From an uncultured Rickettsiales bacterium (lineage in GTDB: Bacteria > Pseudomonadota > Alphaproteobacteria > Rickettsiales > CAZAGG01): a DNA stretch of 64,000 bases. The stretch is taken from positions 61,384 through 125,383 of the forward strand of contig CAZAGG010000009.1 of the NCBI GenBank assembly GCA_964484565.1, given 5' to 3'. Numbering within the stretch: the stretch's first letter is position 1; the number at the start of each line of letters is the position of its first letter. Of this stretch, positions 14,285 to 44,454 are shown piece after piece. The translations under genes and the position numbers were made by a program. The notes under the pieces were generated by a model. It saw only the letters and a list, made by a program, of their open reading frames with translations, was not told the origin of the DNA and made no database searches.

Positions 14285-15988
14285 TCACTCAGAGTTACTT
14301 GCAGATTCAAGTTGTTGCTCGACATAATTGAAGGAGCTTATTTTTCTAGTTCTAATTTTTTCTTGCAACTTATATTGATGATCTGGGTCGGTGGAGAGTT
14401 TTAAGGCTCTCTCCCACTGGAAAACTGCTTCATTTTTTCTGCCTATCTGGAAGTAGGCATCTCCTAAGTGGTCATTGATATGTGGATCTGAGGGAGATAG
14501 CTCCATAGCTCTTTCTAGATATTTAATTGCTTCGTCAAAATCGCCAAGTTTATATAAAGACCAGCCATAACTATCGATAATTGCTGGGTCATTTGGGCGT
14601 TCCTTAACAGCATCTTTAAGCATCTTTGATGCCTGCTTAAGGTTTATATTCATTTCAAGCCAACTATAAGCAAGATAGTTAATTACGTCTGGCTGATTGG
14701 GTGCAAGACTCAAGGCTTTGTTAAAGGCTTCTTCCGCTTTATCCCATTGCTTGATTCTCTCGTGGGCAATACCTTTAGCGTAAAATATTGGCCAGTGCCA
14801 TTTTTGGGGAGTGGGTATTCTTGCAAAGGCCGCTTCATAAGATTCTATTGCTTCGGGGAATTTTGAATTTGCTCTATAAATATCTCCCGCATGAACGTAT
14901 GGATCGTAAGAATTAGGACGCTCAGCTGCCATAGATCTTAGATATGTTATTGCATCAGATTGTCCTTTAATTCTTTCGAGGCACTGGGCTATTTGTAAGC
15001 GCGCCCTCCAACCATAAACGCTTTTAGCATCAATCTTGCTATAAACTTTAATTGCATCTTCATATTTTGATTCTGCTTCTAAGAACGCGCCAAGCATTAA
15101 TTTCGCGCCTGAAAAGTCTGGCCTTAGATATATTGCCATATTCAAGAAGGAGTATGCATCCGCGCTATTTTCTTCGCTATATATCAAACTTGCGACGTTA
15201 TAGAACACTTCAGCTATGCCTTCTCTTGCGCTTAGAACTGGCATTTTAGATTCAAGGTTGCCAAGAGTAATTAATGCCTCGCGCGAAAACCAGTTGTCGG
15301 CGTTATCTTCAGTGAGTGCCTCATATAATGCTTTGGCTTTTTCTATTTGCCCTCTTCTTTCATAAAAACTACCCATAATTTCTATGATTCTTTGAGCTTT
15401 AATCTCGCTCTGACTAAGGGCTTCAACATATGAAGATTCTGCTTTCTTAAAATCTCCTGTTATTTCATACATCAACGCCATATGATAGCTTACTAGGGGA
15501 GAGAAGTTATCGCTCTCTGCTGCTTGTTTTGATATATCAAGAGCCTCTTCTGCATCGCCACTGCCTAACAATAGCCATGCTTTTACAATGGGCATTAGAA
15601 TTGAGTTAAATCCATAATTTGGGATCTCTTCTGCATACGAAAGGGCTTTGCTGAAATTCCCAGAATTTACTTCTTTAGCAATAAGCAAAAAGCTGACGCT
15701 TGGTGAGCGAATCTGCTGAGAATAGAGCTTCTCTGCAACTTTTACTGCGTGAGTAATGTCTCCCGCTCTTGTAAGGTTTGCCAATGCCTCTGTGAGTAGT
15801 TCTTCTTCTGAAGGCCTGCTTTCTAAGGCTTTTTCAAAATATTTTGCGGCATCGCTATATTTGCCAGTGTTTGCAGCGAATCTTCCTGAAAGGTAGTTTC
15901 CAGAAACAGAATACTGACGCTGAGATTCCTCAGCAAAAGCTGACTCTCCCACTACCGAAAGAATAATAATTGCAAGAATGACGCGCAC
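14285..15988 (-). CDS. Exported tetratricopeptide-repeat protein
   Basis: Signal peptide, 'SGNYLSGRFA', many TPRs, 'NYLAYSW', 'DSYGW', 'DHLGD' (conserved alphaproteobacterial TPR family). Confidence 0.9.
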   Translation of the reverse strand: MRVILAIIILSVVGESAFAEESQRQYSVSGNYLSGRFAANTGKYSDAAKYFEKALESRPSEEELLTEALANLTRAGDITHAVKVAEKLYSQQIRSPSVSFLLIAKEVNSGNFSKALSYAEEIPNYGFNSILMPIVKAWLLLGSGDAEEALDISKQAAESDNFSPLVSYHMALMYEITGDFKKAESSYVEALSQSEIKAQRIIEIMGSFYERRGQIEKAKALYEALTEDNADNWFSREALITLGNLESKMPVLSAREGIAEVFYNVASLIYSEENSADAYSFLNMAIYLRPDFSGAKLMLGAFLEAESKYEDAIKVYSKIDAKSVYGWRARLQIAQCLERIKGQSDAITYLRSMAAERPNSYDPYVHAGDIYRANSKFPEAIESYEAAFARIPTPQKWHWPIFYAKGIAHERIKQWDKAEEAFNKALSLAPNQPDVINYLAYSWLEMNINLKQASKMLKDAVKERPNDPAIIDSYGWSLYKLGDFDEAIKYLERAMELSPSDPHINDHLGDAYFQIGRKNEAVFQWERALKLSTDPDHQYKLQEKIRTRKISSFNYVEQQLESASNSE

Positions 15989-28748: not shown

Positions 28749-29531
28749 ATGGTGAGTAAGTCTGACATACTTTCTCTAATTCAACAAATGCCCATATATG
28801 ATACAATGGTAAACGGATGTGTAATAGCAGAATGCACAAACTTCTCAGATAAAATTAGAGAGGTTTTATCCGATAATAATATTCCTGTGCTAATGGTTGG
28901 CGACCATTGTCATACCTTTCTTATTACTGAAACAGATGACTTTGGCATCATGATACTAGACGCAACTGCTCATCAATTCGAAATGTTTGATGAATGGGTT
29001 TTTATGCCAGTTCAAGATGTTGTTGATAAGATAAAAAATAGAAGACCAGATATTCGCATTTGGGGGTATTGGGTTGGAGAAATAGAAGTTAGCAACAAAT
29101 ATAAATTTGATGCAGAATATGGAATTGGCATAAACAAAATTGAAAGAGAATTTCTAGATAGGATATCCGTACCTATCGAAAAATCTGGAATAAGACTAAT
29201 AGATGTAGATAGAGAAGAACAAAATAGAATGCGAGCAGAAAGTGCACTTAACTGCTTGATGGTTTCGCTTGACAGCCTGACTAAGAAATCAACTATTGAG
29301 TGCATGAAATCTCAAGGCTCTAGTATCGTTAGCATTCACCCAAGCTACATACAATCAGAAAGGGAAGAAGTCATTGCTAAAAGCAGAGTGTTTTACATGT
29401 ATGAGAGAGATGCTGCAGAAGTAACAAATGTTATCAATAGTAGGTGGTGTCCTGAATGGATAAAAGGCAAACAAATTCTTCCAGCAGAAGAGAGAGAATC
29501 TAATATACAAAAAGGAGGAGTGGCTCGTTAA
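28749..29531 (+). CDS. Hypothetical protein with papain/transglutaminase-like Cys-His-Asp signature
   Basis: 'ECTNFS...HTFL...ILDATAHQF'; fold assignment is inference. Confidence 0.6.
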   Translation: MVSKSDILSLIQQMPIYDTMVNGCVIAECTNFSDKIREVLSDNNIPVLMVGDHCHTFLITETDDFGIMILDATAHQFEMFDEWVFMPVQDVVDKIKNRRPDIRIWGYWVGEIEVSNKYKFDAEYGIGINKIEREFLDRISVPIEKSGIRLIDVDREEQNRMRAESALNCLMVSLDSLTKKSTIECMKSQGSSIVSIHPSYIQSEREEVIAKSRVFYMYERDAAEVTNVINSRWCPEWIKGKQILPAEERESNIQKGGVAR

Positions 29532-29577
29532 TTTGAATGACTCTAATTCAAAAATTAAATATAGATTGTAATATCAT

Positions 29578-30774
29578 ATGACTGACTCAAAAATTGATGC
29601 AGCTAAAAAAAGAATAAGAGAGTATGTTTTTTCTGATAATTTCTCTCCAGAACGTTTTGTTGAGGTTACGGCTAACCTTCTTAGTGCCATAGAGCAAACT
29701 AGAGACAATGTTGAGTATAATATACTTGGTTGTAAATTAAGAGATCTTATATCTTTTCAGATGATTAATCCAAATGCAGATATTTATGTAAGTGGGCAGT
29801 GGGGAACTAGTTCAAGGCGCGCAACTCAAGAGCCAGATTCTGTAAATGGACTTGCCGAGTTTTTAGAGGCTTATCATAGAACGATGCGCAACGCCGCTGC
29901 AAAATTAAACTCGATTATACAAAATTCAGATGTGGAGCGGAATATTCCATTTTATAAACTCCTATCGGATATGTTTGATATAATAGAAACGGCGGGACAA
30001 TATTACTGGAGCGATATAGATACGGCTAAAGAGTTTCTTGAGGCTTTAGAGAAAATTGATGTAGAGCAAATAGATCGGCGCGCAAGGAATTTTTTTGTAA
30101 ATTTAAAAAGTTATTTTGCTAAGTTTGTTAATTCTGGCGGAGGGTATTTAAATATAGACTATGATAGTAAAGGCTTTGATATATTAGATCAATTAAACGT
30201 ATTACTGACTTTATATTCAACGCCAAGAAGTCCTTTTTTTAAATCAGGGGAAATTAAATTTAGTCTAGCCGATGGAAAATATCAACTTTCAATGCCTGCG
30301 AATGATATTATTGGAACAGACCCAAACAATCACCCTATATCACTTATTGAGTTTCTAACTGCTTCAATTATTGCGGCAAACCGTGTTAAGCCAAGATTGT
30401 TTAAATGGCTTGAAGATAAAGCAGGTGCAGCGGAAATTTTAACGGCGCGACTCATGGGTTTATATGAAAATATAACTGTTAAACTGCGAGAGAAATATCC
30501 ACAGGAAGTTGAGGTTAATTTCCATAAATTCAACCAATTGAGAGTTGCTGCTGATTATGCATTTCAAGATAAGATAGGTGAGCTTTGCATTGTCGCTTCA
30601 GAGTTAATTGGATCGATTAAAAAACGTGAGGTCAATCTATATTCGCAATATCAAACTCAATACGATAATGTTGCAAATGCCTTAAAAGAATTTCTGGGCT
30701 TTTATGGAATTGATACAAAAGAAATGAAAGCGATTGCAGAAGAAGCAAAGAAATCACCGCATCGAGGAAGATAG
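29578..30774 (+). CDS. Hypothetical protein (helical, basic C-terminus)
   Basis: 398-aa AT-rich ORF ending KKSPHRGR; no family recognised. Confidence 0.7.
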   Translation: MTDSKIDAAKKRIREYVFSDNFSPERFVEVTANLLSAIEQTRDNVEYNILGCKLRDLISFQMINPNADIYVSGQWGTSSRRATQEPDSVNGLAEFLEAYHRTMRNAAAKLNSIIQNSDVERNIPFYKLLSDMFDIIETAGQYYWSDIDTAKEFLEALEKIDVEQIDRRARNFFVNLKSYFAKFVNSGGGYLNIDYDSKGFDILDQLNVLLTLYSTPRSPFFKSGEIKFSLADGKYQLSMPANDIIGTDPNNHPISLIEFLTASIIAANRVKPRLFKWLEDKAGAAEILTARLMGLYENITVKLREKYPQEVEVNFHKFNQLRVAADYAFQDKIGELCIVASELIGSIKKREVNLYSQYQTQYDNVANALKEFLGFYGIDTKEMKAIAEEAKKSPHRGR

Positions 30775-30787
30775 GAAAAATGCAGGG

Positions 30788-31540
30788 CTATTTTGGCGCA
30801 GGTCTACGCGGCATAGAATCGTTATAAACGCACACAACATCTGACCCGGCACGAAGAGTAAAGCGAGATGCAACGCGCTCTATAACTATATAATCGCCTC
30901 TTGCGCGGTAGTTAACAATTTGCTCCTTGCCATCAGAGTTTACAATAAAGAAAGCTGGAATTTCAGCATTGGGCTTAAATTGGAAATATGTGAAAGTGCC
31001 ATCATCAAAAATCTTGATGGGAGATGAATATTCAGGGCCTGTAAGTGAATAATTAAAATTATATTTACCAGGTTCTTCAAGCTCTGGAACAGGAATTTTA
31101 TCTTCAACTACGTTATAGCTCATCTCCTCATTAGGATAGATAAATCGCATTACAAAAACCATATCAGGAGAACGAATATCATCGGCTTCTGAGGCGTGAA
31201 GCTCAAAATGATAGATTCTTTTGTCGGTGATGACAGTCATGTTGGTTGTGGCATTTTTATCGACAGGCTTAATAAATATTCTGTCGCCAGATGGAACTAT
31301 TTGCCAAGCTGTTGAATCGCCTATGGAAATTGTTTGTACAACTTCTGCGCCTCTTTCAAACTCGATGCTGGTTTGATAGCCGTAATGGCCAAGAAACTTG
31401 AAAACTTCGTTTTCTTGATAGTTTACAATTCTGATTCTGCTATCTGTGGCTAGCGGTCTTGCCTCTTTTGCAGCATAGCCAGCAGAAGTTACGCTAAAAA
31501 TAGCAACTGAAAAGATAGCAAAAAGAGTGCGAAGTTTCAC
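30788..31540 (-). CDS. virB9: T4SS VirB9/TrbG core protein (paralog 1)
   Basis: Signal peptide, 'DSRIR.V.Y...EV', 'GDS.AWQI', 'TNMTVIT.KR.Y.F', 'P..IFDDG.FTYF.F'. Confidence 0.92.
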   Translation of the reverse strand: MKLRTLFAIFSVAIFSVTSAGYAAKEARPLATDSRIRIVNYQENEVFKFLGHYGYQTSIEFERGAEVVQTISIGDSTAWQIVPSGDRIFIKPVDKNATTNMTVITDKRIYHFELHASEADDIRSPDMVFVMRFIYPNEEMSYNVVEDKIPVPELEEPGKYNFNYSLTGPEYSSPIKIFDDGTFTYFQFKPNAEIPAFFIVNSDGKEQIVNYRARGDYIVIERVASRFTLRAGSDVVCVYNDSMPRRPAPK

Positions 31541-32283
31541 TATTTTGAACCTATAATTTGTTCTATATTATAATCGGTTACTATGAATTCCATAGGTTTG
31601 ATTTCATAAGTTTCCTGATTTACCTCTACCTTTTTATAGCTAAACTTAAGTTTTGCAAGGAAATTGGAAGTTATTGATTCGCCTTGTTGATTTTTAACTA
31701 CCGAACTAAAGCGGATTTCTGCACCATCAGGGAAGGCAACTTTATCATCTGCGTTTGTTGATGATTTGATTGGCGTGTAAGATTCAATAAATATGCTACG
31801 GCTGCTGGTTCTGCCATAAAGTGCAATAGGGCTTTCTGGATTTGTTGGCTCAAGAAATGCACGATATGTTTTAAAAATTTCGGGGTCTGAAAGTGCTCTG
31901 GTTCTATAAAAATTCTTCTCAAAGTCTTCAATAATATAACTTTCACGTGCAATTACATAATCTTTTGCATGAAATTCTATTAATGCATCATCTGTGTAGC
32001 CATATTTATTTGCAAGAGGGATAATTCTTGGGGAATAATTATCTATATCATTTTGGTAGACTACGGCTTCATAACGTTCTTCTAGCGGCAGAATTCCAGA
32101 TATTGCCTGATAGGCATAATAGATAATCAGGCAAGATATTATCATTATAACAATAAGATAAGACCGCTCAGCCATTGGAGAGTTATACTTCGCGTCATAC
32201 CACGAGAGAGACTCGGAAAAGTAATTTCCCTCCTTTATTTTTTGAGCGGCCTCAATAAATTCTAAATTTTCTTCAGTTTTCAT
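31540..32283 (-). CDS. virB8: T4SS VirB8-family protein (atypical paralog)
   Basis: Single TM, 'YV.ARESY', 'P.NP.SP...YG', ends 'KPMEFIVTDY' without NPLG. Confidence 0.82.
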   Translation of the reverse strand: MKTEENLEFIEAAQKIKEGNYFSESLSWYDAKYNSPMAERSYLIVIMIISCLIIYYAYQAISGILPLEERYEAVVYQNDIDNYSPRIIPLANKYGYTDDALIEFHAKDYVIARESYIIEDFEKNFYRTRALSDPEIFKTYRAFLEPTNPESPIALYGRTSSRSIFIESYTPIKSSTNADDKVAFPDGAEIRFSSVVKNQQGESITSNFLAKLKFSYKKVEVNQETYEIKPMEFIVTDYNIEQIIGSK

Positions 32284-32355
32284 TAAACTTGCAATATTAG
32301 TTTAACCGTATTGTAGTATAATAGTGTCTCCATTATAAAGGCAAAGAAATTAAGA

Positions 32356-35300
32356 ATGTGTTTTTTTAATTACAGAACTTGGCTGAATAGACAGAATTTT
32401 TTGTCTGTAACTGTTTTGTTGCTTGTTTCTTTCCTATTTAGCAATGCCTCTTACGCACAGGTAGGCGTACCGCCACAGCAATGTCTCGAGAAGGGTAGGG
32501 CTTGTACGGAAGAATATCCTAATGCCTGTCAGTTTTGGATGTCAAACGACCCCGCTGCGGGTGAGCTTGAAACGACGCTCAACGATCCTGAAAATGGTAA
32601 TCCGCCAATTACTTCAAGTAATAGTAGCGTTACCTGTAACTGTTGGGAACCGTTTATTTCTGGAAGTGTTTTGAACGTTAAGTTTGCAAACGACCCGCTA
32701 AATCCCAATAATCCAAGAAGTTTAAATGTTCTTTGCAGTTGGTCTGAGAATGGAGCAAAACACGGAACTTTAATGGATTGTAGGAGTGCAATATCATTTG
32801 CATTTGGTTTTAATGGTGAAACCTGCGAGGTTAATCCATACGCTGGGAACTCAAACGGAAGTTGCGCTCTCTCAGTTCAGGAGATAGGCAGACTTCCAGG
32901 ATGTACAGCGACAGATAACGGAGAGTATTCAGCGCAACATCAATGCCGAACAAATATAGGTAACGCTATTTCGAATTCAGCTTGCCCTGCAAGATTTCAA
33001 CAATTTTTGGAAAGCATGAACCTTGAAGGATGCGAAAATCGAAAAGAGCTTCCGAAACCAGATGAAGAAATGCAACAAAACTGGTGCAAAAGTTTTGCTG
33101 ATGCGACAAAAGACTCTCTATACCGCGACTATGGAAGAAGGGTTTTGTGTAAAGGCGAAATGGGTGTTGGTAATGAGGGTGTAAGCGATAATAACTATGC
33201 TAGAGCGCAAACGGTTTTAATTAGAATGTGTAATGGCTATGAGCAGGTTAGAAAACCATCTAGTCCAGATATAGTTGATTGTGGCTGTCAGGATGAGTTT
33301 ACTAATACTATGGCCGAGCTATGGGGCTCAAACTCAACGACAATTGATAGTGCATGTTCTGCAATAGTAGAAAGCGGATGTAGGAGTAGCGAGTGCTGGA
33401 ACTCGTTTAAAAATGATTCAGTTTCAGCAGTTTTAAGGCCAGTGCTTGACGGATCTGGAAATGCAAGCGATGTCGCTCAGTTACTAAGAGGGCAGCAAAC
33501 AGCAGGTGGCGTAAGTTGCGAGAGATATGTTGGACCTAAATCAACCGCGTGTAAAGGCCCAGCAGGAAGTTGCGTAACAGCAGGAAGGATTATCTCACCT
33601 GGAAGTGACACTCTCGGAATGTGTCATATTCCAGAGCCAGTGCAAATCGAATATGAAGATAAGCAAAGAATCATAGGTGCTAAACCACTAGGAAGACATG
33701 CAAGAAAGAAGACAGATGTAATAAATCCATATCTAAAAATGCCAGAGCAGGCTTATCGAACGGCGCAATGTTATGGATACGTCAAAGAATTGTGGAAAGA
33801 GAGTGCGTCTTTAGAAAAAGAATTTAGAAGAATTATGGCTGAGTTTAAGAACTGTAGCCGTGTTAACCAGATTAACAATCAAAGCGTTAGTTCGTGCTCT
33901 ATAGCTAGAGAATCTGCTCTTATGCAGCTAAACTCTTCTTTGCAAGGTCTTTTTGGAGTGGATCCAGATTTTTGTAGAAGGAGGCATTGCCAAAAATCTG
34001 GTGATTTTGCAAAATGTATGGAGAATCTACCTCAAACGGCGGGGGTAAATTTTGAGTGTGTTGAAGACGCGATAATATATGGAAGTGGCTGCGCCGGCTT
34101 GGTTGAGCATAGCACAGATTATCTTGATGATACGGTTGCGATGGGTTGCCCGCTCTCTATGCGAATAACTGCTGGAGATACGCCGTCTCTGGCCAGAAAC
34201 AAGATAACTCAATGTGTTGATAATGTTATCCGCTTAAATAGGCATCTTCCAGTCGTCAGAACTGTTACCAAAAGAGAGCCAATTTCAGATGATGAATATG
34301 CAGTTAAATATTGTCAGCTAATTGGCTTAAGCGAAGATATTGCCGAAAGTCGCTCTGATGAGAAATATGACCTATTTAAAATGAGCGGAAGCAAAGATAG
34401 AGCGGCGTTAGGCGGAGGTTCAATTTACAGATATCAGTGTTTGGCGGCACAGAAAAAATCTAGGGTTGAGCCACTAACTAGTAATGGCAAAACAGTTTTA
34501 GCAGAAAGAATATTAGAGCCAGAGCCATCTTCGGCAACTTTTGAATCCAGCCTTTATGGTACGCCTGCAAATGAAGCAAATTTAGAATACGCGCTTGCGA
34601 ATATGCCACCTTATCCAGATATGGATATGAATCGCTTGAACCAAGAAGAAGGCAGTATTTGTCGCCCTATAATGGAAGATATGGCCGAGAAACCAGAAAC
34701 CAGATATAATCCTAAAAAAGAACAAAATCAGAACTTTACAACCTTAAATCAGTTAGGAGAAAAATTCTCAGGAGATCACTCCGATGGTTTTAGCCCAAGA
34801 CATTTAGAAGATTTTAAGAGAGGTTATACTGAGGGTTCTGATATAATTCCACAATGCTTCCAGTGCAGCGGTGGAGCAGCAAATAAAGATCTTAAAACGT
34901 TATATCAGTTAATGCACTGGAATCGTTTACCTTATAAAAACTGTATCAACTGTATTAAAACTTGCAAACTTCCTAATAACCGAACCTGTACTTGTACCGC
35001 GAGCGTTCAAAACCCAGATTATCAAGGTCAGGCGGGAGGAAACCAGCCGATGCAGAATTATGAAGGTAGCTCAAACCAGCCAGAATTTATAGATAAAATC
35101 GAAACCAGAGTTTGCGATATAAGTCAGGAAAAATGCTGTCCAGATGGTTATGTTGAGTCGTGCTCAGGCCAAGTTTGCAGCACGGAATATATGCCAACCG
35201 AACCTCAGCCAGTTGATAATTGCTGCACAGCTACGGGGGAAGGTAACTGTGTCGAAGATGTAAACCATCCATGGCCAAGCGAGAACGAGCGTTGCAGATG

Positions 35301-38300
35301 GAGTAAGTCTGATCAGGATCGCTTTGCAGCCGCGCCATTCTGTAATACTTGCCCATCAAGTTCGCCAGAGGCATGTTGCGGTGATTACCTAACCGATGAT
35401 ATAGTGCCTCATAATATACTGAAACTAAGGGCAAAGCGCGACTCTTGGGGTAAGGAAGAGTATAACTTCCCACAGGGACAAATGTCGCGTGCACGAATTA
35501 ACACTAATGAGGGTGGCTCATCAAGACCGCCAGAGGGCGGGCCAATCAATGTAGAAAGAAATCCAGATGAAGACATGAAGCGAATCTCGCCAGTGCCAGA
35601 AGGATTTTATTTTGAAGAAGAATTCGGTTACGGGGGAGCATTATTTAGAGGCGGCCTACTCAATAGACAAGCCCCGCTGTATGACCATAAAGTAAAGCCA
35701 TATATGATATGGTGGGATGAAGGTTTGCCAAGTTGTAAAGGTTGGAACGATGCCATAGTTGGAATCGGAGATGAAAACCGAAACTGTGGTTATGGTGGAT
35801 GGGAAGAGCTTAAATTATATCAACATCGCTGTTTAAGAGAATTCTCAACTAACTGTATGTGTAATTATGAGCGTACCTTTAAATATGGTTCGGCTGAGGA
35901 ATATGTTCATGCAGCATCGGGAACTTATGTCTCTCCCACTAGCTTTACTTATGTAGGATCAACTCCAACTGCAAAAGCTAATTCACAAATATGGCCAATT
36001 GGCTGGAGAGGATATGTCTCTGAGCCAGATCCAGAATATCGCTTTCCAGCATTTGGAATGGTTGAGGCATATGGTGCTGGAAACAGCGTTGCGGCTCTAA
36101 GAGGAAATGCAGCAAAGTATGTAAACCCAGAGCTATACGGCATTACTAGAAATATGGATGGTCTTAAGAAGCTGGTTGAAACTGGAGCATTAAGGCAAGG
36201 TCTTGAGAATGCGAAAGAAGGTGATATTCTAATTTGGGATAGGGATGTTCTTTGGGGCTCAGATTGCAATAAGCAAACCATGACTTGCTCTAGTTTCGTT
36301 AAACTTGCAGGAAAAGAGCCTTTAAAAACTCCAGAAGCAAGACTGCCGCATGTCGCACATGTTCGTGCGGCTTACACTCCTGCCTCAGTTCTTGCACATT
36401 GTGAAGCTAGAAAACTATTATGCAAAACTGCAATAGAAGTAGGAGGTAATAATAGAAGAATTGGTGATATTCAAGATAATCCTTTCTTTAGAGGCAATAG
36501 ATCGCCTGCCGCTAATCAAGATCCTTTGACTTTTAGAGAGCAAGATCTTGCAGAGTGTCAACCTGAGAATGGTTTTGATTTCAAAACAGGAAACTGCTCA
36601 GCATATCAACCTTATGTAGATTCATTAAAATCACCTGAAAAATGGTATGTCATAGTCTCTGAAAAGAATTATGGCAAATATCCAGATATTTGTGGTAACA
36701 CAGATAAATGGGGTATTGTAACTTCCAGAACGCTTATTCATCCATCAATATCGGCAGATAAACTTGGTCTTCCCAAAGATATAGCAAAGTCTGAGGGTTC
36801 TTGTTCCGATCCTCAAATTGCAAGGTGTAGAGAAGAAAAATGGGATAAAGTTAAAGTTTATAATCCGCGGCTAGACTGGCGAGTTCCAAATACTATAAGG
36901 GCTTGTCGAGAGGTTGCAAATTTCTCAGATGATCCAGCAAGATTACTAGCACAGAGAAACCTCATATTTGATGCAATATATGCTGGGTGTGATCCAATTC
37001 CAGCATTAAGACAACTAGGGGGAAGCCCAAAACCTGTGTCAAATCGTAACTTTGGTAAGGCTACAGTAGACAGAACAACTGAACCAACTGAGCCAGGTAC
37101 AAATGACGGTCCTCAAAAACTGGCGATTATGGAATTTTTATCTAGCGATATTATCCCACCAATTTTAGAAGAAACCAGAAGACCTGAAGATATTCCTCTG
37201 CCACCAGAGTTTGCTGATGGGTCAATAATTAGTACGGGTCTTGGTTTGATTCCTGAAATTAGCATCTGGACTAGAAGAGGAGGTGATGGTTCTGGCGGAG
37301 GAGGTAATGGCTCAGGAACTGGAGACAATGATAACGATGGCAATGGCTCTGGTGGAGGTGATGGCTCTGGCGGTGACGGAGGAGGGGGCAATAATTCAAA
37401 CGATAATGGCTTAGCAGGAGCTAATAAAAGTGGATGGCCAGCTTGTGAAATGCCTCAGAATCTATATGTTTCCAATTGTTCGGGTTGTTATGTAACAACG
37501 GGAAGATGCGGAATCAGCGGCTCTGGAGTTTTTGCGACTAGATGTACGTCTACAATTTCGACCACTAAAAAAGCTCCATCGGAATTCGCAGCAGGAGATG
37601 GCTACGCCTGTGTTAAATCACAAAACGGTGAAGATATTTGTGTAAGAGGTGCAGGAATCCTCGCACAGCCTGCAATGAATAGTGGCAGCATATGCAGTGG
37701 CGGAAAGTGTATATGCCTTGAGTCATGCCAGACAACACAAAGAGCAGTTAGTGCAGATGCGGCATCTGGTGCAAAGACAGATATGAAGAAATTTATGAGT
37801 GAGATTAAGCAGTGCGTTACCAGAGTTCCTCTCACGAATGACACAGAAGATAAGGTTTATAATTGGACAGACTTAAAGCAAGGGAAGTTTCCAAGCGAAC
37901 TTAAAGCGCCACCATCTGATTTTACTGATAAGAATCCTAAGCTCGGATTACCGAAATGTGCAAATCCTGTTCCAAATCAGTGTTTAGATCCTGCAATTTG
38001 TTTCGACTCTATCGCAAATGAAAATCAACAGTGCGATTTTACAGGCGAGCGAACCCCATGCAAAACAAGTTTGCAAAGAGATAATGGTTATGACCACGAT
38101 TTTGTAGCTGACTTCCTATATCACTACACAAACTTCTGTAAAGTTGGCGCTTTGAAAAGCGATCCAGCGATGTGCAGGGCTATGACAAATACTCCTACTA
38201 TAGAGTGGTTATTCAAGCCAGAGATTGCAAATAAACTAAAAGATGCCGACATGAAGGAAATGCAGGGCGTAAGCGGCATGATATTCTATAAACTTACCAA

Positions 38301-38688
38301 AACGGAATATGCTGCTGAAGAATCTTCTTGGCAGAATCCAACGATAGATGAGCTAAAGCAGAAGATGGTGTTGTTTAAGGATATTGTTGCTAAACAGGAT
38401 GTAACTAAAAATCCTTCAGCAATTTTGCCAGCTCCGTCAATCGCAATAATTATCAGCGATAGATATTATAGAGGCCAAAGCGCAATAGTTTATGATTATC
38501 ACCAAGATAGAAACTGCGTTGATTTGATTAGCTCTAACTGGCTTGAAAACTCTTCTTGTGCAGCTAAAACACAGCAATTTGATGCTCATAACTGCTATCA
38601 GGCAATTCCTACATTCAAAAAAGGCTGTATAGAATATTGTGTTCCGCTATCAAGAATTAGCTTTATGTTCAACCCCGAGGCTCCGTAA
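32356..38688 (+). CDS. Giant secreted cysteine-rich protein (2110 aa), function unknown
   Basis: Uninterrupted 6.3-kb ORF, signal peptide ending ASYA|Q, about 100 Cys by manual count, Gly/Asn/Asp linker. Confidence 0.85.
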   Translation: MCFFNYRTWLNRQNFLSVTVLLLVSFLFSNASYAQVGVPPQQCLEKGRACTEEYPNACQFWMSNDPAAGELETTLNDPENGNPPITSSNSSVTCNCWEPFISGSVLNVKFANDPLNPNNPRSLNVLCSWSENGAKHGTLMDCRSAISFAFGFNGETCEVNPYAGNSNGSCALSVQEIGRLPGCTATDNGEYSAQHQCRTNIGNAISNSACPARFQQFLESMNLEGCENRKELPKPDEEMQQNWCKSFADATKDSLYRDYGRRVLCKGEMGVGNEGVSDNNYARAQTVLIRMCNGYEQVRKPSSPDIVDCGCQDEFTNTMAELWGSNSTTIDSACSAIVESGCRSSECWNSFKNDSVSAVLRPVLDGSGNASDVAQLLRGQQTAGGVSCERYVGPKSTACKGPAGSCVTAGRIISPGSDTLGMCHIPEPVQIEYEDKQRIIGAKPLGRHARKKTDVINPYLKMPEQAYRTAQCYGYVKELWKESASLEKEFRRIMAEFKNCSRVNQINNQSVSSCSIARESALMQLNSSLQGLFGVDPDFCRRRHCQKSGDFAKCMENLPQTAGVNFECVEDAIIYGSGCAGLVEHSTDYLDDTVAMGCPLSMRITAGDTPSLARNKITQCVDNVIRLNRHLPVVRTVTKREPISDDEYAVKYCQLIGLSEDIAESRSDEKYDLFKMSGSKDRAALGGGSIYRYQCLAAQKKSRVEPLTSNGKTVLAERILEPEPSSATFESSLYGTPANEANLEYALANMPPYPDMDMNRLNQEEGSICRPIMEDMAEKPETRYNPKKEQNQNFTTLNQLGEKFSGDHSDGFSPRHLEDFKRGYTEGSDIIPQCFQCSGGAANKDLKTLYQLMHWNRLPYKNCINCIKTCKLPNNRTCTCTASVQNPDYQGQAGGNQPMQNYEGSSNQPEFIDKIETRVCDISQEKCCPDGYVESCSGQVCSTEYMPTEPQPVDNCCTATGEGNCVEDVNHPWPSENERCRWSKSDQDRFAAAPFCNTCPSSSPEACCGDYLTDDIVPHNILKLRAKRDSWGKEEYNFPQGQMSRARINTNEGGSSRPPEGGPINVERNPDEDMKRISPVPEGFYFEEEFGYGGALFRGGLLNRQAPLYDHKVKPYMIWWDEGLPSCKGWNDAIVGIGDENRNCGYGGWEELKLYQHRCLREFSTNCMCNYERTFKYGSAEEYVHAASGTYVSPTSFTYVGSTPTAKANSQIWPIGWRGYVSEPDPEYRFPAFGMVEAYGAGNSVAALRGNAAKYVNPELYGITRNMDGLKKLVETGALRQGLENAKEGDILIWDRDVLWGSDCNKQTMTCSSFVKLAGKEPLKTPEARLPHVAHVRAAYTPASVLAHCEARKLLCKTAIEVGGNNRRIGDIQDNPFFRGNRSPAANQDPLTFREQDLAECQPENGFDFKTGNCSAYQPYVDSLKSPEKWYVIVSEKNYGKYPDICGNTDKWGIVTSRTLIHPSISADKLGLPKDIAKSEGSCSDPQIARCREEKWDKVKVYNPRLDWRVPNTIRACREVANFSDDPARLLAQRNLIFDAIYAGCDPIPALRQLGGSPKPVSNRNFGKATVDRTTEPTEPGTNDGPQKLAIMEFLSSDIIPPILEETRRPEDIPLPPEFADGSIISTGLGLIPEISIWTRRGGDGSGGGGNGSGTGDNDNDGNGSGGGDGSGGDGGGGNNSNDNGLAGANKSGWPACEMPQNLYVSNCSGCYVTTGRCGISGSGVFATRCTSTISTTKKAPSEFAAGDGYACVKSQNGEDICVRGAGILAQPAMNSGSICSGGKCICLESCQTTQRAVSADAASGAKTDMKKFMSEIKQCVTRVPLTNDTEDKVYNWTDLKQGKFPSELKAPPSDFTDKNPKLGLPKCANPVPNQCLDPAICFDSIANENQQCDFTGERTPCKTSLQRDNGYDHDFVADFLYHYTNFCKVGALKSDPAMCRAMTNTPTIEWLFKPEIANKLKDADMKEMQGVSGMIFYKLTKTEYAAEESSWQNPTIDELKQKMVLFKDIVAKQDVTKNPSAILPAPSIAIIISDRYYRGQSAIVYDYHQDRNCVDLISSNWLENSSCAAKTQQFDAHNCYQAIPTFKKGCIEYCVPLSRISFMFNPEAP

Positions 38689-38736
38689 GGATATTCGAGG
38701 CTACATATTATCTCTCACATTGCTTATGGGGCTACT

Positions 38737-40392
38737 CTATTCTTCTTTTCCACCTCTTCTGAACAAATTTCTGAATCTAGAAAGAACACTAGCTCTTTTA
38801 GGATCAAGGTCATTACCTTCATGAGGCTCTAGGCGTTTCTCGGCATTTCTTAGTCGCACTTCTGTTTGATGATTTGTGCCTAACGCCTCTTCAATTTTCA
38901 GTTGCTGTTTTCTTTCTTCTCGCTCAATTTCTTGCTGGATATATAATTCTATAGCTTTTTCAATTTCGGCTGGCAGGGAGATAAAGTGTCTAAATTCTTC
39001 GGGAATTTTGACTCCTCTGCGCCCTCTCTTTTTATCCTTTTCGTTCAAGTGCAGCTCGGGAAATATATCACTCATTTTTATAGGCGATAAAATATCTGGC
39101 GAACTGGAAAGAATTTTAAAGATTGTAGTATTTGTCGCATGGCTGGATTGTGAGCCGTTAAGATCAGTTATAAACAAAAATTCATATTCCTCTGTCGGCG
39201 GAGGAAAAGTAAAGTGATGTTTAATTCCTAGATCTAGTATTGTTCCAAGATAAATGCTTGGAATATATTTAATACCTACTTGCCCATTAAAGAATTTATC
39301 ACTTATAAAGACACCAGAAGTTTCGGTAGTAGTGATATCAATTTTACCACCACATACTATAACATAGATTGTAGATTTTCCATCTTGTAATTCTTCGATA
39401 TGCAAGGTTGGTGAATTTGGGTGATAACTACCTTTCTGATTAGGGGCTTGTATTTGTTCTAATAACGATAGTTTGCTATAGCCTAGTATATCAGGTAATT
39501 CATTCTTAACTTTCTCAATAACTAAGTTACGTAATTTTTTAGGGAGACTATCAAACTTTCTTTCATCGATTTGATATGCTGGATTTTCAGCAACATCTTG
39601 CATTCTTGCAAGTAATGCATTTCTCTCACTTGCTATAGATCTCAGGAAAGTTGTAGTTTCGTTACTATATATTTGAATATCAGATTTAAGTTGTTCTGGC
39701 GATTCATTTTTCTGGATTCTTTCGGCGGTGTTCGCATCTTTATCAGTGACTTCATCCCTCTTTTGTATCAGTTCTTTGAGTAGTTTATCAATTTCCGAGA
39801 TGTAAGATCCATATTCCTCACCTGCAATTCGTTTAAGAGCGCATAATCTAAATTGGTTTGTAAGTGGATCTGATATAACCCTTCGAGCGTTTGCCTCACC
39901 ACCAAAGTTATTAGCATATTGTGAAGCAATTAATTCTGCTCTTGCAATTACATCTTCCTCTTTTGCAGATTCTGGAAGTAGTAATTCCGCTAATTCTTCT
40001 GGTATGTATCCTATTGAAACTTCAGCATCATCTTCAATACTAAGAGTGTTTTTAGGTTTTATAGCAAGTAGATCTTCAAGGCTAGAGCCTTCTTGAGTAG
40101 AGAGCCCCGTTTGGATATTTTCTGTTGCGGCTTTATAAGCTCTCACATGGATGTTATTAATACGAGTTATTGCCTTTTGAAGAAGTCCTTCAGCAGATTT
40201 GTTTGCATAGTTATATGACGACTCAGCGCAATCTCTTTGTCTTTCGAGATATTCTATTTCAGAGTCAATTCTTTGAATCAATGGCTTGAAATATCTATCT
40301 TTTTCTGCAACTAACTCAGCTTGAATTTGTACGTTGGTTTTGATTGTAATACCAAGACCAAGTAAATCATCGTCACTGTCATTTCTTGCCAT
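38737..40392 (-). CDS. Hypothetical protein (coiled-coil N-half, basic C-terminus)
   Basis: 551-aa ORF downstream of virB11; ends RFRNLFRRGGKEE; no Walker motif. Confidence 0.75.
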   Translation of the reverse strand: MARNDSDDDLLGLGITIKTNVQIQAELVAEKDRYFKPLIQRIDSEIEYLERQRDCAESSYNYANKSAEGLLQKAITRINNIHVRAYKAATENIQTGLSTQEGSSLEDLLAIKPKNTLSIEDDAEVSIGYIPEELAELLLPESAKEEDVIARAELIASQYANNFGGEANARRVISDPLTNQFRLCALKRIAGEEYGSYISEIDKLLKELIQKRDEVTDKDANTAERIQKNESPEQLKSDIQIYSNETTTFLRSIASERNALLARMQDVAENPAYQIDERKFDSLPKKLRNLVIEKVKNELPDILGYSKLSLLEQIQAPNQKGSYHPNSPTLHIEELQDGKSTIYVIVCGGKIDITTTETSGVFISDKFFNGQVGIKYIPSIYLGTILDLGIKHHFTFPPPTEEYEFLFITDLNGSQSSHATNTTIFKILSSSPDILSPIKMSDIFPELHLNEKDKKRGRRGVKIPEEFRHFISLPAEIEKAIELYIQQEIEREERKQQLKIEEALGTNHQTEVRLRNAEKRLEPHEGNDLDPKRASVLSRFRNLFRRGGKEE

Positions 40393-40434
40393 ATAGTTAA
40401 ATCCATAAGTATTATCGTTCCAAATAACTTAAGG

Positions 40435-40468
40435 TTTATAAGCTGGTTGTATTGCAGATTTATGACAA
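40435..40468 (-). promoter_or_regulatory. PhoB/OmpR-type direct-repeat box plus -10 hexamer
   Basis: Minus strand TTGTCATAAATCTGCAAT-N10-TATAAA; close to the Pho-box consensus CTGTCATAWAWCTGTCAY. Confidence 0.55.
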
Positions 40469-40481
40469 ATGTTAAGTTTTC

Positions 40482-41456
40482 TTAGGCGCAATATATATCG
40501 GAGACGAAACGTCTGCCTTTGTCTCCGCGTTTTAGCTGAATTACTACGTTGACAACACTTTTAATATATTCATGAATCTGGTCGCGTTCTAGGCCAAGAC
40601 CTGCCTGCATTACCATCAGAATAAGCTGCTCAAACGCAAGCATAGGGCTATCGGCGTGCAAGGTTGCAATTGAACCAGGGTGGCCTGTATTTATGGCTCT
40701 GAGAAAGCTGAAGGCTTCTTTGCCTCGTAACTCACCTAGAATAATTCTATCGGGTCGGAGCCTTAAGCAAGACTCGATGAGAGACTGAACATCAACATTC
40801 GCCCTTCCCTGTCCGCCGCGTGATGCAAGAAGATGAACTCTGTTTGGCAAGTGTTCAATATCCACTTCCCTTGCATCTTCAATGGTTATAACCCGCTCAG
40901 ATTCTGGAATTACTTTTAGAGTTGCGTTTAAGAATGTTGTTTTACCTGTTGAAGTTCCACCACTTATTATGATGTTTTTCTTAGCAAGAACTGCTTGTTT
41001 GATGAATTCTTTTATTTCTCCCGCATCAAGCAAGGCGCGGAGCTTTTGACTGCTTTTATCTTCTTGCTGTTTTACTTGAGTTGTTTGAAATGCGCCAATT
41101 GCCTCATATTGATCGAGATCAAAGTTTAAGATTGTCTGCTTACGAATAGACATTGCAATAGTTCCAACCTCGCAGGCGGGTGGAAAAACAATCTGGATAC
41201 GATAACCAGCAGGCAATGATGCAGATAGTAACGGCGTTTCTTCGCTTATTCTTTGTTCAGTAGATTGAGCAACTAGTCTTGCCAGTGCTTTTAAGTGCTC
41301 TAAATCAAACTCAGGAATGCTCTCTCTTATCATATCTCCGCGATATTCAACCCATGCTTCTGACGGGCGATTGATTGATATTTCGCTTACTCCTTCTCTT
41401 TCAAATAATTTCTTTAAAGGAGTTAGATATGTCTCAAGAGCGGTAAAGTTACTCAT
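40482..41456 (-). CDS. virB11: T4SS ATPase VirB11
   Basis: 'SGGTSTGKTT', 'TIED..E', 'LRLRPDRIILGELRG', 'NTGHPGS..TLHA'. Confidence 0.96.
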   Translation of the reverse strand: MSNFTALETYLTPLKKLFEREGVSEISINRPSEAWVEYRGDMIRESIPEFDLEHLKALARLVAQSTEQRISEETPLLSASLPAGYRIQIVFPPACEVGTIAMSIRKQTILNFDLDQYEAIGAFQTTQVKQQEDKSSQKLRALLDAGEIKEFIKQAVLAKKNIIISGGTSTGKTTFLNATLKVIPESERVITIEDAREVDIEHLPNRVHLLASRGGQGRANVDVQSLIESCLRLRPDRIILGELRGKEAFSFLRAINTGHPGSIATLHADSPMLAFEQLILMVMQAGLGLERDQIHEYIKSVVNVVIQLKRGDKGRRFVSDIYCA

Positions 41457-41461
41457 TATGC

Positions 41462-42649
41462 TTATCTTATAAAGTTGATTTGCTGGCCTATATTGTTTGG
41501 GAACATAAGATCTCGATTTACAAACACTTTAACAGGTGTTCCCTGATGAACTGTGATGGTTGGTCTTAGGTCGATAAATTCATCGACAATCCCTTTGGTA
41601 ATTCCACCAACATTACCAATAACTTGTTGAGCGGCTTGTGCGGTTGCTGTTCCTGAGTTTTCAGTGCTGCCATCGCTATAGGTTCTGCGGCTGGTAGTTG
41701 CGCTATCTGTGATTTGGTCAATACCATAGGCAACGCCTAAAGTAATTGTGCTGGTAAGAACTGCGGTTGAAAATATCTCCATAAACTTGCTATCAACGAT
41801 TCCTTCTAATCCAGATCTTCCTAGATTATCAACCCCTGGTGAGTTTACCATAACATCAACGCCGTCTGGCCTTATAACCCTTGTCCAAACTACCAGAACT
41901 CTTTTTTGCCCCCTGCGAACAAGCGTATTATATGTTCCAATTAGGCGTGAACCCTTATGAATCATCACTTTAGTTCCACTTTCCGCATATATGTTGCGGT
42001 TGACGATTGCTCTTAGCATGCCAGGTAAATCAGTATTTATTGCTGTTTCTAAGGTTGCATCAATGACCTTCCCCTGCGCAATAACTGCGTTTGTATTGCC
42101 AATTCTGCGAGCCTCTGCTTTTTCTGCTTCGGTGGTTGAAATGACATTTTGAGCAAACTCCATGTTAGGGTCTTCTGATGGTGGTTTTTGTTCGCTAGAT
42201 CCGCCACCAGCAATTCTAGATACAATACCTTTGTTGCTATTCAAAATGACCATGTTTGATCTAATCTTGGCAAGTTTGGTTTCGTTGTAATTTCCGCTTG
42301 AGTCTGTGAATAGTGGTGAATCAGCCTCTTCACCTGGTAAGGGCGGTGGTGGAGGCGGAGGAGGCGCACTAACTGTAGGAGCGGGAGGAATCGGAGCAGG
42401 AGGCGGAGGCATTACAGGAGCAGGCGCAACAGTAGCAACTGCCTGTGATTTTTTCTCTGCTTGTTGTTTGTTGTTATCTGGTTCATCGCCGCCAAATATG
42501 AAATATAATACCGTGCCTATAACTCCAACAAATCCAGCTAGGAATATAAAGGTTCTGGCAGGGGTTGCTGAAACAGAAGGTTTTCCACTGCTAACAGGTT
42601 TTGGCTGCTCTAAGGGTTCTTCAGGAGGTTGCTGATATTGTTCTACCAT
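41462..42649 (-). CDS. virB10: T4SS VirB10/TrbI
   Basis: TM plus Pro-rich stalk, 'QG..I.A.LETAINTDLPG', 'GSRLIG', 'D.LGRSG', 'PTI.V.QG...VFV.RDL.F'. Confidence 0.95.
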   Translation of the reverse strand: MVEQYQQPPEEPLEQPKPVSSGKPSVSATPARTFIFLAGFVGVIGTVLYFIFGGDEPDNNKQQAEKKSQAVATVAPAPVMPPPPAPIPPAPTVSAPPPPPPPPLPGEEADSPLFTDSSGNYNETKLAKIRSNMVILNSNKGIVSRIAGGGSSEQKPPSEDPNMEFAQNVISTTEAEKAEARRIGNTNAVIAQGKVIDATLETAINTDLPGMLRAIVNRNIYAESGTKVMIHKGSRLIGTYNTLVRRGQKRVLVVWTRVIRPDGVDVMVNSPGVDNLGRSGLEGIVDSKFMEIFSTAVLTSTITLGVAYGIDQITDSATTSRRTYSDGSTENSGTATAQAAQQVIGNVGGITKGIVDEFIDLRPTITVHQGTPVKVFVNRDLMFPNNIGQQINFIR

Positions 42650-42662
42650 CTGTTACCTAATA

Positions 42663-43757
42663 TTATTTTTTGTTGGTTAGCTTGGATTCATTATAAACGC
42701 AAACTATCTGATTGTTATTTCTAAGTGAAAACTGAGTTGCCACCTGATCTATAACGATAAAATCCCCCTGAAATCTTGTTTGCACCGCAATCTCTTTGCC
42801 ATCTTTATCTACCACTGCAAACTCTGGAACAATTTTGTTTCCATCTCTAAACTGCATATATGTGTTTTGTCCGTCATCAAATACTTTGACAGGTGCAAAA
42901 ACATCTGGACCAGTCAGAGTATAGTTGAAATTAAATGCACCACTAGCACTTTGACCTTGTTGAACATTAACGCTTGGTGGGGGAGGAGATAGTTTGTCAA
43001 GTGAGGGGATTTCCTTTGCTTTTTTAGGTTCCGCTAATTGTTTTGTTGCTGAATCTGGCTGTGGCTTTGCAAAACTTTTCGATTGAATTTTGAGTAGTTT
43101 AAGTTCGCTGTCATCAACTGGCGGTTTTGATACAGGAACTTCCATTTCCTGCGTGCCACTTCGCCCTGCAAAAGATGGAGGGGGTGGAGGAATCATACCA
43201 AATTCAGAAGCATCATTAGGCAGTCTAGCAGGAATAAATTGCTCAGAGGATGATTCGGGCATTCTTTGTTTTGGAGCTTGTGCGATAACTGGTGCAGCCA
43301 TTTGAGCCTTTGGCTTGTTATCATCTAGCTCAGGATAAAAGAAACGAATAACATAAGAGAGATTTTTATCGCCTGTTGGCTTAGCAACCAAATCAAACTG
43401 ATAAACCCGTTTATTGGTTATAACGGTCATGTTAGTGCGGATTGTTTCTTCTAAGGCTTTGATGAATAAATGCCTTCCCGCTGGGATTATTTGCCAAGCA
43501 GATTGATCACCTACTGAAATGGTTTGTATTTGTTCTTCTTTTGAGAACTCTATATTTGACTGAAAACCGTAATTGGTGGTGATGACATAGACTTCATTTT
43601 CGTTATAAACCAGTGTTCTAATTCTGCTATCTGTTGATATTGGATCGAAATCTCTGCCTGCCTGTGCGAGTGAATCTTTTGCTAAACTCATAGATAAAAA
43701 GAGAGCAGAAAACAAAATAGCCAGTGTTTTTTTGTTAATAAACATTATTAATCTCAC
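42663..43757 (-). CDS. virB9: T4SS VirB9/TrbG (paralog 2, with Pro-rich insertion)
   Basis: 'DSRIRT.VY', 'TNMTVITNKRVYQF', 'PVKVFDDG..TY'; lies between virB8 and virB10. Confidence 0.9.
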   Translation of the reverse strand: MRLIMFINKKTLAILFSALFLSMSLAKDSLAQAGRDFDPISTDSRIRTLVYNENEVYVITTNYGFQSNIEFSKEEQIQTISVGDQSAWQIIPAGRHLFIKALEETIRTNMTVITNKRVYQFDLVAKPTGDKNLSYVIRFFYPELDDNKPKAQMAAPVIAQAPKQRMPESSSEQFIPARLPNDASEFGMIPPPPPSFAGRSGTQEMEVPVSKPPVDDSELKLLKIQSKSFAKPQPDSATKQLAEPKKAKEIPSLDKLSPPPPSVNVQQGQSASGAFNFNYTLTGPDVFAPVKVFDDGQNTYMQFRDGNKIVPEFAVVDKDGKEIAVQTRFQGDFIVIDQVATQFSLRNNNQIVCVYNESKLTNKK

Positions 43758-43758
43758 C

Positions 43759-44454
43759 TTACCTTCCCATGAATTCTTCGTCTAAGCGATAGTTATTAAC
43801 CTGAAAACCTAGAGGATTTAAATATCGGTCTCTTAATGTAAGCTCTAGTTTTATAAAATCAAATGATAATAGAACTATATAGTTTTTCGTAACTCTTTGT
43901 CCTCTATTTTCATCTACGGCTGTTATTCTAACTTGAGCTGTATTTTCATCTAGGAATGTTATGGCCTTGAAGTCTGCAAAACGTTTATATTCTGAGCCAT
44001 ATTGACTCACTAAACTTTCTTTATTGTTTGGGTCATAAATTCGTCGGTATTGTCCAAAAATTTGAGGCGTTGACATTACCCTAACCATATCAAAATTATA
44101 AGCAAATGACGCAGCGTCATATGTTTCTCTTGCTCTAATATAGCTTGTAACGAAATGCTGTTTGAGGGCTTCGTTAGCTGTCATCTCTTTTGCTTTTAGA
44201 GGATTAACAACTTGTGTCATTCCCGTTTTTTCATCAACTTGAATAAGAAATGGCTGAACAGATTTAAGTGGGGTAAGCCTTGCAACAGAAATTGTCGAAA
44301 GCAACACAACAACCAGTGCAACAAGCGTTACCAGTGCCAGAATATTACGTTGCACAAGCACTCTTTGGTATCTATCTTGATACCAATTTCTTTTAGGCTC
44401 TTGTTTTGAAGAACCTGCTTTTGCCTGATCAATAAAGTTTTTAAGTTGTGACAT
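43759..44454 (-). CDS. virB8: T4SS VirB8 (canonical paralog)
   Basis: 'P..I.VD..TG', 'Y..ARETY', 'RYLNPLGFQV..YR'. Confidence 0.93.
   Translation of the reverse strand: MSQLKNFIDQAKAGSSKQEPKRNWYQDRYQRVLVQRNILALVTLVALVVVLLSTISVARLTPLKSVQPFLIQVDEKTGMTQVVNPLKAKEMTANEALKQHFVTSYIRARETYDAASFAYNFDMVRVMSTPQIFGQYRRIYDPNNKESLVSQYGSEYKRFADFKAITFLDENTAQVRITAVDENRGQRVTKNYIVLLSFDFIKLELTLRDRYLNPLGFQVNNYRLDEEFMGR

Follow-up and report, generated by a model that had tools for sequence, protein, structure and literature searches.

A giant cysteine-rich protein gene beside the second virB8–virB9 pair of a Rickettsiales rvh secretion system

[quoted passage not shown] Both questions are raised by a 64,000-nucleotide stretch of DNA from an uncultured Rickettsiales bacterium (assembly GCA_964484565.1, contig CAZAGG010000009.1, positions 61,384 to 125,383 of the forward strand), hereafter the window. 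Here, the second virB8 and virB9 genes (virB8-II and virB9-II) face a gene for a cysteine-rich protein of 2110 amino acids (aa), the giant, on the opposite strand. What is this gene, and does it belong to the secretion system? The giant was found to be a member of an order-specific protein family whose genes, in most of the lineages bearing them, stand physically next to the duplicated pair, which provides a testable handle on both questions. The reading that we prefer, and to which we assign about an even chance, is that the giant would be exported by Sec and would serve the rvh system as a cell-wall accessory of the VirB1/PrgK kind, docking via VirB8-II and VirB9-II.

The host genome, whose 27 contigs total 2.2 Mb and whose completeness is 100% as judged from marker genes, has the features of an rvh system. 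It contains two VirB8 and two VirB9 genes, all four within the window; VirB4 is likewise duplicated, with one copy on contig C10 and the other on C7, and VirB6 is present in four copies, three on C10 and one on C7. VirD4 is on C10 and not after virB11, and the components are scattered in islets. On C7, three virB2 paralogs in tandem stand immediately upstream of the VirB4 copy found there and of a VirB6 (G000:C7:99836-104029). A preliminary description of the window had named the virB8/virB9 duplication as an rvh hallmark; it is accompanied here by other hallmarks.

A family linked to virB8-II and virB9-II

Synteny was scored over up to 10 kb on each side of genes encoding the core segment of the giant (defined below), in 16 loci from relatives and 45 from 185,579 species genomes. 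Seven loci were common to both sets, leaving 54 distinct other loci, of which 12 were uninformative because the giant frame meets a contig end. In 35 of the 42 informative loci, which come from distinct species genomes, virB8-II and virB9-II lie divergently upstream of the core gene. Related genomes are of course not independent, so the count by family, 12 of 15, is the safer figure; the unlinked families are f8, f10, and f19. The maximal frames of linked pairs are usually less than 200 bp apart. One linked locus has two small genes between the giant and virB8-II, and three have a further same-strand frame of 354–1779 aa between or abutting them, the clearest of which, at 1779 aa, resembles a split-off N-terminal piece of the giant. 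The virB9-II product is ~50% identical to copies adjoining giant homologs in 33 other loci, and that of virB8-II is 21–39% identical to those in 35. The genes on the other flank of the giant vary between loci (H+-PPase, mutL, and a LOG-like gene), and the conserved divergent unit is therefore specific. Neither virB10 nor virB11 was near a giant homolog in any of the 54 loci, so the position of the giant between two vir clusters is peculiar to this lineage, and its earlier portrayal as splitting a T4SS locus cannot be carried over to the family. Linkage to virB8/virB9, which had been proposed as a test, was found in most loci and families, with the seven unlinked loci as exceptions.

Those seven loci bear on a different explanation, namely that the giant is a housekeeping or otherwise unrelated envelope protein, such as a wall-remodeling or division hydrolase, and that vir adjacency is simply inherited gene order. 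The gene persists at all seven among housekeeping neighbors (thiG/parAB; glyQS; lpx genes; hisDG; a trypsin-like protease; an ABC transporter; malate synthase), rvh exists without the giant in most families, and the M23, SLT, and NlpC/P60 domains of its relatives are common in housekeeping wall enzymes. However, adjacency survives between families whose VirB8-II is only 21–39% identical to that of the window, while all other neighbors change, and some family members are fused to VirB2 (see below). In addition, a search of 398 genomes belonging to other orders gave no family member, and the host genome already has five M23 and three SLT proteins elsewhere. We judge this explanation very unlikely.

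With the giant alone as query, relatives were detected in 16 of 40 related genomes, matching via a core at about residues 1110–1515 only or, in a few cases, also via the C-terminus. A core profile of 14 sequences was searched against 1.84 billion cluster representatives, the family being counted here as clusters at 50% identity; 285 matched at E ≤ 0.001 and 203 at E ≤ 1e-30. Among the 150 matches listed, most are 800–3600 aa long (shorter ones may be fragments), and the core lies in the C-terminal half, in many cases right at the end of the protein. Of 400 genomes sampled across the order, 137, from 83 of 190 genera, contained the core, and its distribution by family was almost all-or-none: the families that have it gave 18/18, 36/40, 18/18, 34/40, 3/3, and 4/5, and those without it 0/11, 0/11, 0/12, 0/39, 0/39, 0/28, and 0/39. 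When 400 further genomes of the class were sampled, the only two with a match proved to belong to this same order, which leaves none among the 398 of other orders, and tblastn of the core against plasmids and phages gave no match. Genomes bearing the gene are mostly 1.6–2.7 Mb; those of the large families without a match are mostly 0.8–2.0 Mb, several being closed single contigs, and these are presumably the classical host-restricted families.

VirB8 was found in all 41 genomes of the first sample, mostly twice, and none of the 41 has the giant without a T4SS. In this respect, the phylogenetic profile agrees with the proposed association, which homologs in genomes lacking a T4SS would have contradicted. 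No description of the family or of its synteny was found in the papers searched, among them PMC9352585, PMC11077975, PMC10847448, and PMC2653234, whose figures or supplements may show the gene.

Core, heads, and fusions

The 99 cysteines of the giant make up 4.69% of its residues, and its subdivision is given in Table 1. The N-terminus is probably a signal peptide and would direct export; most giant homologs also have signal-peptide-like N-termini by the same hydropathy script. No Pfam family was matched at E ≤ 10 by the whole protein or by three parts of it (M23, SLT, CHAP, adhesin-type, and TraN families included), and an NCBIfam scan gave no match. In the variable region, residues 13–380 align with P0004 at 28% identity, and another relative, P0005, has an M23 module in place of the first ~400 residues of the giant; phmmer searches with residues 1–420, 421–1100, and 1516–1700 against all locus open reading frames (ORFs) found none at 1e-3. 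The C-terminal extension is shared with L014 (in its second ORF), with L015 and L087, and with P0023.

A core model from 14 sequences was poor, with a predicted local distance difference test (pLDDT) of 58.5, but an AlphaFold2 model from 59 sequences reached a pLDDT of 77.4 and a predicted TM-score (pTM) of 0.79. Its top match among the 48,161 chains searched by VIA-align was the Staphylococcus CHAP amidase 5t1q (Z 6.4, root-mean-square deviation 3.1, 108 residues), and ~40 of the best 50 rows were, by their titles, CHAP/NlpC-P60 wall hydrolases or amidases. [quoted passage not shown] A profile search of PDB sequences with alignment A1 gave nothing below E 0.5, and the ESM Atlas gave no usable match for the core. 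From the uniformity of the list and the coverage of the whole CHAP domain, the core is predicted to be a CHAP/NlpC-P60-like papain fold. One member, P0048, has a core that passes the Pfam CHAP cut-off outright (31.5 bits vs. 26); others gave sub-threshold CHAP or DUF1287 matches.

Five positions (Y1155, C1167, G1219, G1440, and C1446) are invariant in 59/59 cores, and C1144, C1483, and C1491 are invariant wherever aligned. The invariant cysteines may be disulfide partners; judging from the aligned ranges, the usual CHAP cysteine may fall near S1179/A1180 and not on any of them, a numbering on which we do not rely. The stretch GDI.IWD...PHVAYV...E-x-N-x-GK resembles the CHAP His and Glu/Asn strands, and the giant's own core retains Cys, His, Glu, and Asn.

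What accompanies the core differs from member to member. According to precomputed Pfam annotation (13 proteins were re-scanned), 12 of the 16 non-self matches of the first search contain PF01551 (M23), in up to three stretches per relative, five contain PF01464 (SLT), and two PF00877 (NlpC/P60); M23 and SLT occur together in one of the 16 loci of relatives. Of a second sample of 30 members, 24 showed nothing recognizable, three had M23, and one SLT. The M23/SLT segments of P0011, P0012, and P0025 contain H-x3-D, H-x-H, and E-S motifs. Overall, family members combine one constant, CHAP-like core with exchangeable heads in front of it, and wall-hydrolase domains are frequent among these heads.

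Such heads would also fit a secreted bacteriolytic weapon against neighboring cells, exported in two steps (by Sec and then through the outer-membrane part of rvh or by some other route), with vir adjacency reflecting co-regulation. Two studies (Schon et al. 2022, PMC9352585; Verhoeve et al. 2024, PMC11077975) have suggested that basal Rickettsiales use rvh to kill other bacteria, and Schon et al. named PGB- and M23-domain proteins as candidate effectors. The M23 and SLT domains of relatives have intact-looking motifs, the modular, fast-evolving N-termini resemble those of polymorphic toxins, Tse1, Tae2, and Tae3 are among the weaker fold matches, and the gene occurs in families with larger genomes while it was not found in families of largely small ones. 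Xanthomonas X-Tfe and T6SS Tse1/Tae proteins similarly bring peptidoglycan-directed M23 or NlpC/P60-type domains to contact-dependent secretion. Those effectors, however, are cytoplasmic substrates with adjacent immunity genes, whereas the giant family has an apparent Sec signal, unlike the known VirD4-recruited killing effectors, and a partly degenerate active site, its only universally conserved part lacking a conserved catalytic His. There is also no small conserved immunity-type neighbor; the conserved downstream gene encodes a probably exported protein of 280–691 aa. Moreover, the giant of the window has neither M23 nor SLT, and VirB2 fusions suit a machine-bound protein better than a released one. 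A weapon is thus conceivable but was judged unlikely.

The fusions were found in three members. An internal TrbC/VirB2 pilin domain is present in P0023 (41.5 bits) and P0028 (42.2 bits; Pfam cut-off 27.9), two of 43 Pfam-scanned family proteins, and an order-wide genome search with that region yielded a third, L087:4709-10627 (G089:C6), only 27% identical. The latter is an uninterrupted 1973-aa frame with TrbC at residues 514–586 (45.4 bits) and the core at 1142–1486. All three carry the giant's core and are in its subfamily; P0023 is 29% identical to the giant's C-terminal domain over 287 residues, and L087 also shares this domain. The giant itself has no hydrophobic pilin-like module. An in-frame pilin fusion would be difficult to account for if the family did not act at the secretion machine, and the fusions tie the family physically to the T4SS. 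The L087 gene adjoins ilvC and an MBOAT gene, not vir genes, and in family f8 the VirB2 fusion coincides with loss of the virB8-II/virB9-II linkage. The DNA surrounding P0023 and P0028 was sought in two metagenome scans, without a match.

A non-lytic pilus or surface adhesin, or a contact stabilizer, might be expected to show such fusions, too. The core would then be a degenerate binding module, and the giant would replace the VirB5 tip adhesin or act in the manner of TraN, a Cys-rich stabilizer of mating pairs. The rvh system is reported in PMC2653234 to be without VirB5; a VirB5 (PF07996) match is absent from the host genome as well, a weak point because the model was also silent in all 14 control genomes. 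The very large, Cys-rich, and apparently exported protein and the non-conserved catalytic His would be in keeping with an adhesin. Nonetheless, the VirB2 fusions number only three, Pfam scanning at E ≤ 10 gave neither an adhesin-type nor a TraN domain, and intact-looking M23/SLT domains in many relatives point to real wall chemistry; an adhesin was considered quite unlikely.

In 36 of the 54 loci, a same-strand ORF of at least 150 aa begins directly after the core ORF, in many cases with a slight overlap of a few bases. Eighteen of the 36 form one homologous group of 280–691 aa (alignment A5); examples are L053:10721-12742, L026:8027-9616, and L044:10811-12883, with 15 further loci. Most members begin with a signal-peptide-like segment of their own and contain a C...DPP..W motif as well as stretches rich in Gly, and none of the four of 18 that were scanned matched a Pfam family. 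The giant, with its long C-terminal extension, may be a fusion of a core gene with such a downstream gene. However, hhalign of the giant-type extension (A6) against A5 gave a probability of 3.4%, only the short GCDPP..W motif being shared; the alignment is not significant, and the two-gene fusion is therefore only suggested.

A proposed role at the wall, docked to VirB8-II

The closest parallels in domain composition are Gram-positive. The T4SS wall hydrolase PrgK of the Enterococcus faecalis plasmid pCF10 combines LytM, SLT, and CHAP domains, of which LytM and CHAP are described as catalytically silent and regulatory; PrgL, a VirB8-like protein, binds PrgK and presumably delivers it to the channel (PMC11323569). 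In PrgK and in TraG of pIP501, LytM/M23, SLT, and CHAP are combined in one T4SS-locus protein; giant relatives have M23, SLT, and the CHAP-like core. The giant gene is likewise next to T4SS genes, both in the window, 72 bp from virB8-II, and in the 35 linked loci. VirB1 (RvhB1) is comparable in another respect, as a Sec-exported wall enzyme that aids T4SS assembly, and its SLT domain is also found in some giant-family members. VirB1 is reported to contact VirB8 and VirB9. It is the domain vocabulary shared with PrgK, together with the adjoining VirB8 paralog, that leads us to favor a wall-directed docking accessory.

The likeness has its limits. The host is a Gram-negative alphaproteobacterium. 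The giant family is Cys-rich with a cleavable-looking signal peptide, whereas the PrgK/TraG type has a transmembrane (TM) anchor. Its core contains ~250 residues of insertions and mostly gives no significant Pfam CHAP match; the resemblance to PrgK is meant as one of domain composition. VirB1 is a small, single-SLT protein, whereas the giant has no SLT domain at E ≤ 10 and its genome has three other SLT proteins; in Rickettsia, RvhB1 is placed in an islet of its own (PMC2653234).

If the giant is such an accessory, it would reach the periplasm by the Sec pathway, and VirB8-II and VirB9-II would recruit it to the secretion machine, paralleling the recruitment of PrgK by PrgL in pCF10. There, it would bind or cut peptidoglycan, either that of its own wall during assembly or that of a contacted cell, and in some lineages a fused VirB2 module might tether the protein to the pilus or display it with the pilus. 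The giant of the window, having neither M23 nor SLT, may act by binding or scaffolding rather than by catalysis. A complex prediction for the core with the VirB8-II periplasmic domain and VirB9-II scored 0.00, which is evidence neither way.

Several observations weigh against a wall-directed docking accessory. Twenty-four of the 40 relatives have an rvh system with VirB8 duplicated but without the giant; the VirB8-II/VirB9-II pair thus works without it, and the giant is not an obligatory component. The seven of 42 informative loci that are not linked to vir genes include the VirB2-fused copy in G089. The fold-match Z scores do not exceed 6.4, middling by the tool's own scale, and Foldseek against PDB gave no match at E ≤ 0.001 with either core model; this silence is unsurprising because the domain is interrupted by the insertions. 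The giant itself gave no M23, SLT, or CHAP match even at E ≤ 10. The position of His1332 is His in only 28/59 cores (K in 13, Y in 9, R in 6). Glu1436 is retained in 40/59 cores, whereas at the position of Asn1438 the residue is Asn in 37/59 and Asp in 21. Because these positions vary, the conserved core may be no enzyme and, across the family, could be a binding or scaffolding module as much as a catalytic one. The wall-lytic role once guessed for the giant is thus in keeping with the predicted core fold and with the M23, SLT, and NlpC/P60 domains of relatives, but less so with the window's own protein or with the weakly kept His. Finally, at 1000–3300 aa and with fast-changing N-termini, family members are well beyond any known VirB1-type enzyme.

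The second pair of the window corresponds to RvhB8-II/RvhB9-II of Rickettsia. There, the pair adjoins virB7-virB8-virB9-virB10-virB11-virD4 (islet C of PMC2653234, which in the text describes no giant), whereas in environmental lineages it is coupled to the giant. We tentatively suggest, as a possibility less probable than the docking role itself, that VirB8-II and VirB9-II are not spare or regulatory copies but the docking half of an ancestral module of virB9-II, virB8-II, the giant, and its exported downstream partner. This module might have mounted a huge, disulfide-rich, wall-directed protein on the machine or pilus, with which Rickettsiales living freely or as epibionts would have made contact with walled cells or attacked them; the giant would have been lost with intracellular life, and the pair of Rickettsia and related lineages would be what was left behind. 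Should the link be functional, the family would provide the first description of a PrgK-like multidomain wall module in a P-type T4SS of Gram-negative bacteria, and the giant gene would mark a lifestyle change within the order.

The locus and its surroundings

The locus map in Table 1 is based on the ORF list of the window and a Pfam scan. The virB8-B9-B10-B11 run, the orphan ORF, the opposite-strand giant gene, the second virB8-B9 pair, and the 72 bp separating the giant from it all lie where the preliminary description had put them.

Table 1. Features of the giant gene and adjoining vir genes, in window coordinates.
Feature	Position	Strand	Remarks
virB9-II	30788..31540	-	250 aa, signal-peptide-like N-terminus; CagX E 2.3e-63
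virB8-II	31540..32283	-	247 aa, one TM segment at ~residues 41-65; Pfam VirB8 E 9.1e-23
Divergent intergenic region	32284..32355	.	72 bp between virB8-II and giant start codons; sequence read
Giant gene	32356..38688	+	2110 aa, 99 Cys; no Pfam or NCBIfam family
Signal-peptide-like N-terminus	32356..32460	+	residues 1-35, ending ...LLLVSFLFSNASYA, followed by Q; sole hydrophobic window (hydropathy script)
Variable Cys-rich N-terminal region	32461..35772	+	~residues 36-1139; common to close relatives only
Family-defining core	35773..36900	+	residues 1140-1515 (~370); predicted CHAP/NlpC-P60-like papain fold with large insertions
C-terminal extension	36901..38685	+	residues 1516-2110; GCDP motif, Gly-rich linker, Cys-rich terminal domain
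orf551	38737..40392	-	551 aa; no family, no signal peptide; after virB11
virB11	40482..41456	-	T2SSE E 2.2e-33; NCBIfam VirB11 E 3.1e-163
virB10	41462..42649	-	TrbI E 1.6e-50
virB9-I	42663..43757	-	CagX E 1.2e-53; match split by insertion
virB8-I	43759..44454	-	PF04335 E 2.5e-49
virB8-I, virB9-I, virB10, virB11 operon	40482..44454	-	Pfam and NCBIfam

Of the duplicated genes, virB8-II is the divergent VirB8 copy and virB9-II the more canonical VirB9 copy, scoring 239.2 bits against NCBIfam TIGR02781 VirB9 (cut-off 217.7). The first pair shows the reverse, virB8-I being the more canonical VirB8 and VirB9-I (364 aa) having an insertion of ~110 residues, with VirB9 matches at residues 17–154 and 269–357. 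A promoter shared by the giant gene and virB8-II/virB9-II seems plausible from the layout; promoter-like hexamers are present in 32284–32355, but their count over the whole region is not above that of shuffled controls.

No relaxase, integrase, or transposase family was matched among the 53 window ORFs of at least 90 aa (Pfam; 16 ORFs at E ≤ 0.01 and 37 at E ≤ 1e-5), as had been claimed earlier, and the surroundings are chromosomal housekeeping genes (miaB, phoH, a hemN-like gene, ksgA, and others). The idea that the giant is a gene of a conjugative or other mobile element was therefore rejected.

The orphan orf551 occupies the usual place of virD4 after virB11. It was considered as a divergent VirD4 and rejected, having no T4SS-DNA_transf match while VirD4 sits on contig C10. 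It is without a family, as first described, but is not strictly an orphan: there are two paralogs in the same genome, one on contig C3 (85% identical over residues 1–333) and one on contig C1 (26% identical), and no matches in the 40 related genomes. The protein appears coiled-coil-rich and may be a lineage-specific secreted substrate.

Elsewhere in the order, one locus (L072:2539-2895, minus strand) has a free-standing virB2 that shares the strand of virB9-II and lies ~1.5 kb downstream of it, and in another (L088, G209:C6) two large ORFs stand between an upstream virB2 and a run of virB8, virB9, virB10, and virB11. In the window, two plus-strand ORFs of 260 and 398 aa between phoH and virB9-II (28749-30774) have no Pfam or NCBIfam family. 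Minus-strand genes farther away encode an AbiEii toxin with a DUF6088 partner, a type IV toxin–antitoxin pair (12484-14146); a TPR protein of 567 aa (14288-15988); an RTX calcium-binding repeat protein of 659 aa (17806-19782); and an ankyrin-repeat protein of 407 aa (51943-53163). The DNA of 30788-38688 was complete in two sequencing runs labeled hot springs metagenome, which may be its source, and ~42% of its sampled words were present in runs labeled sludge and wastewater metagenome; these labels hint at an environmental rather than an animal-associated habitat.

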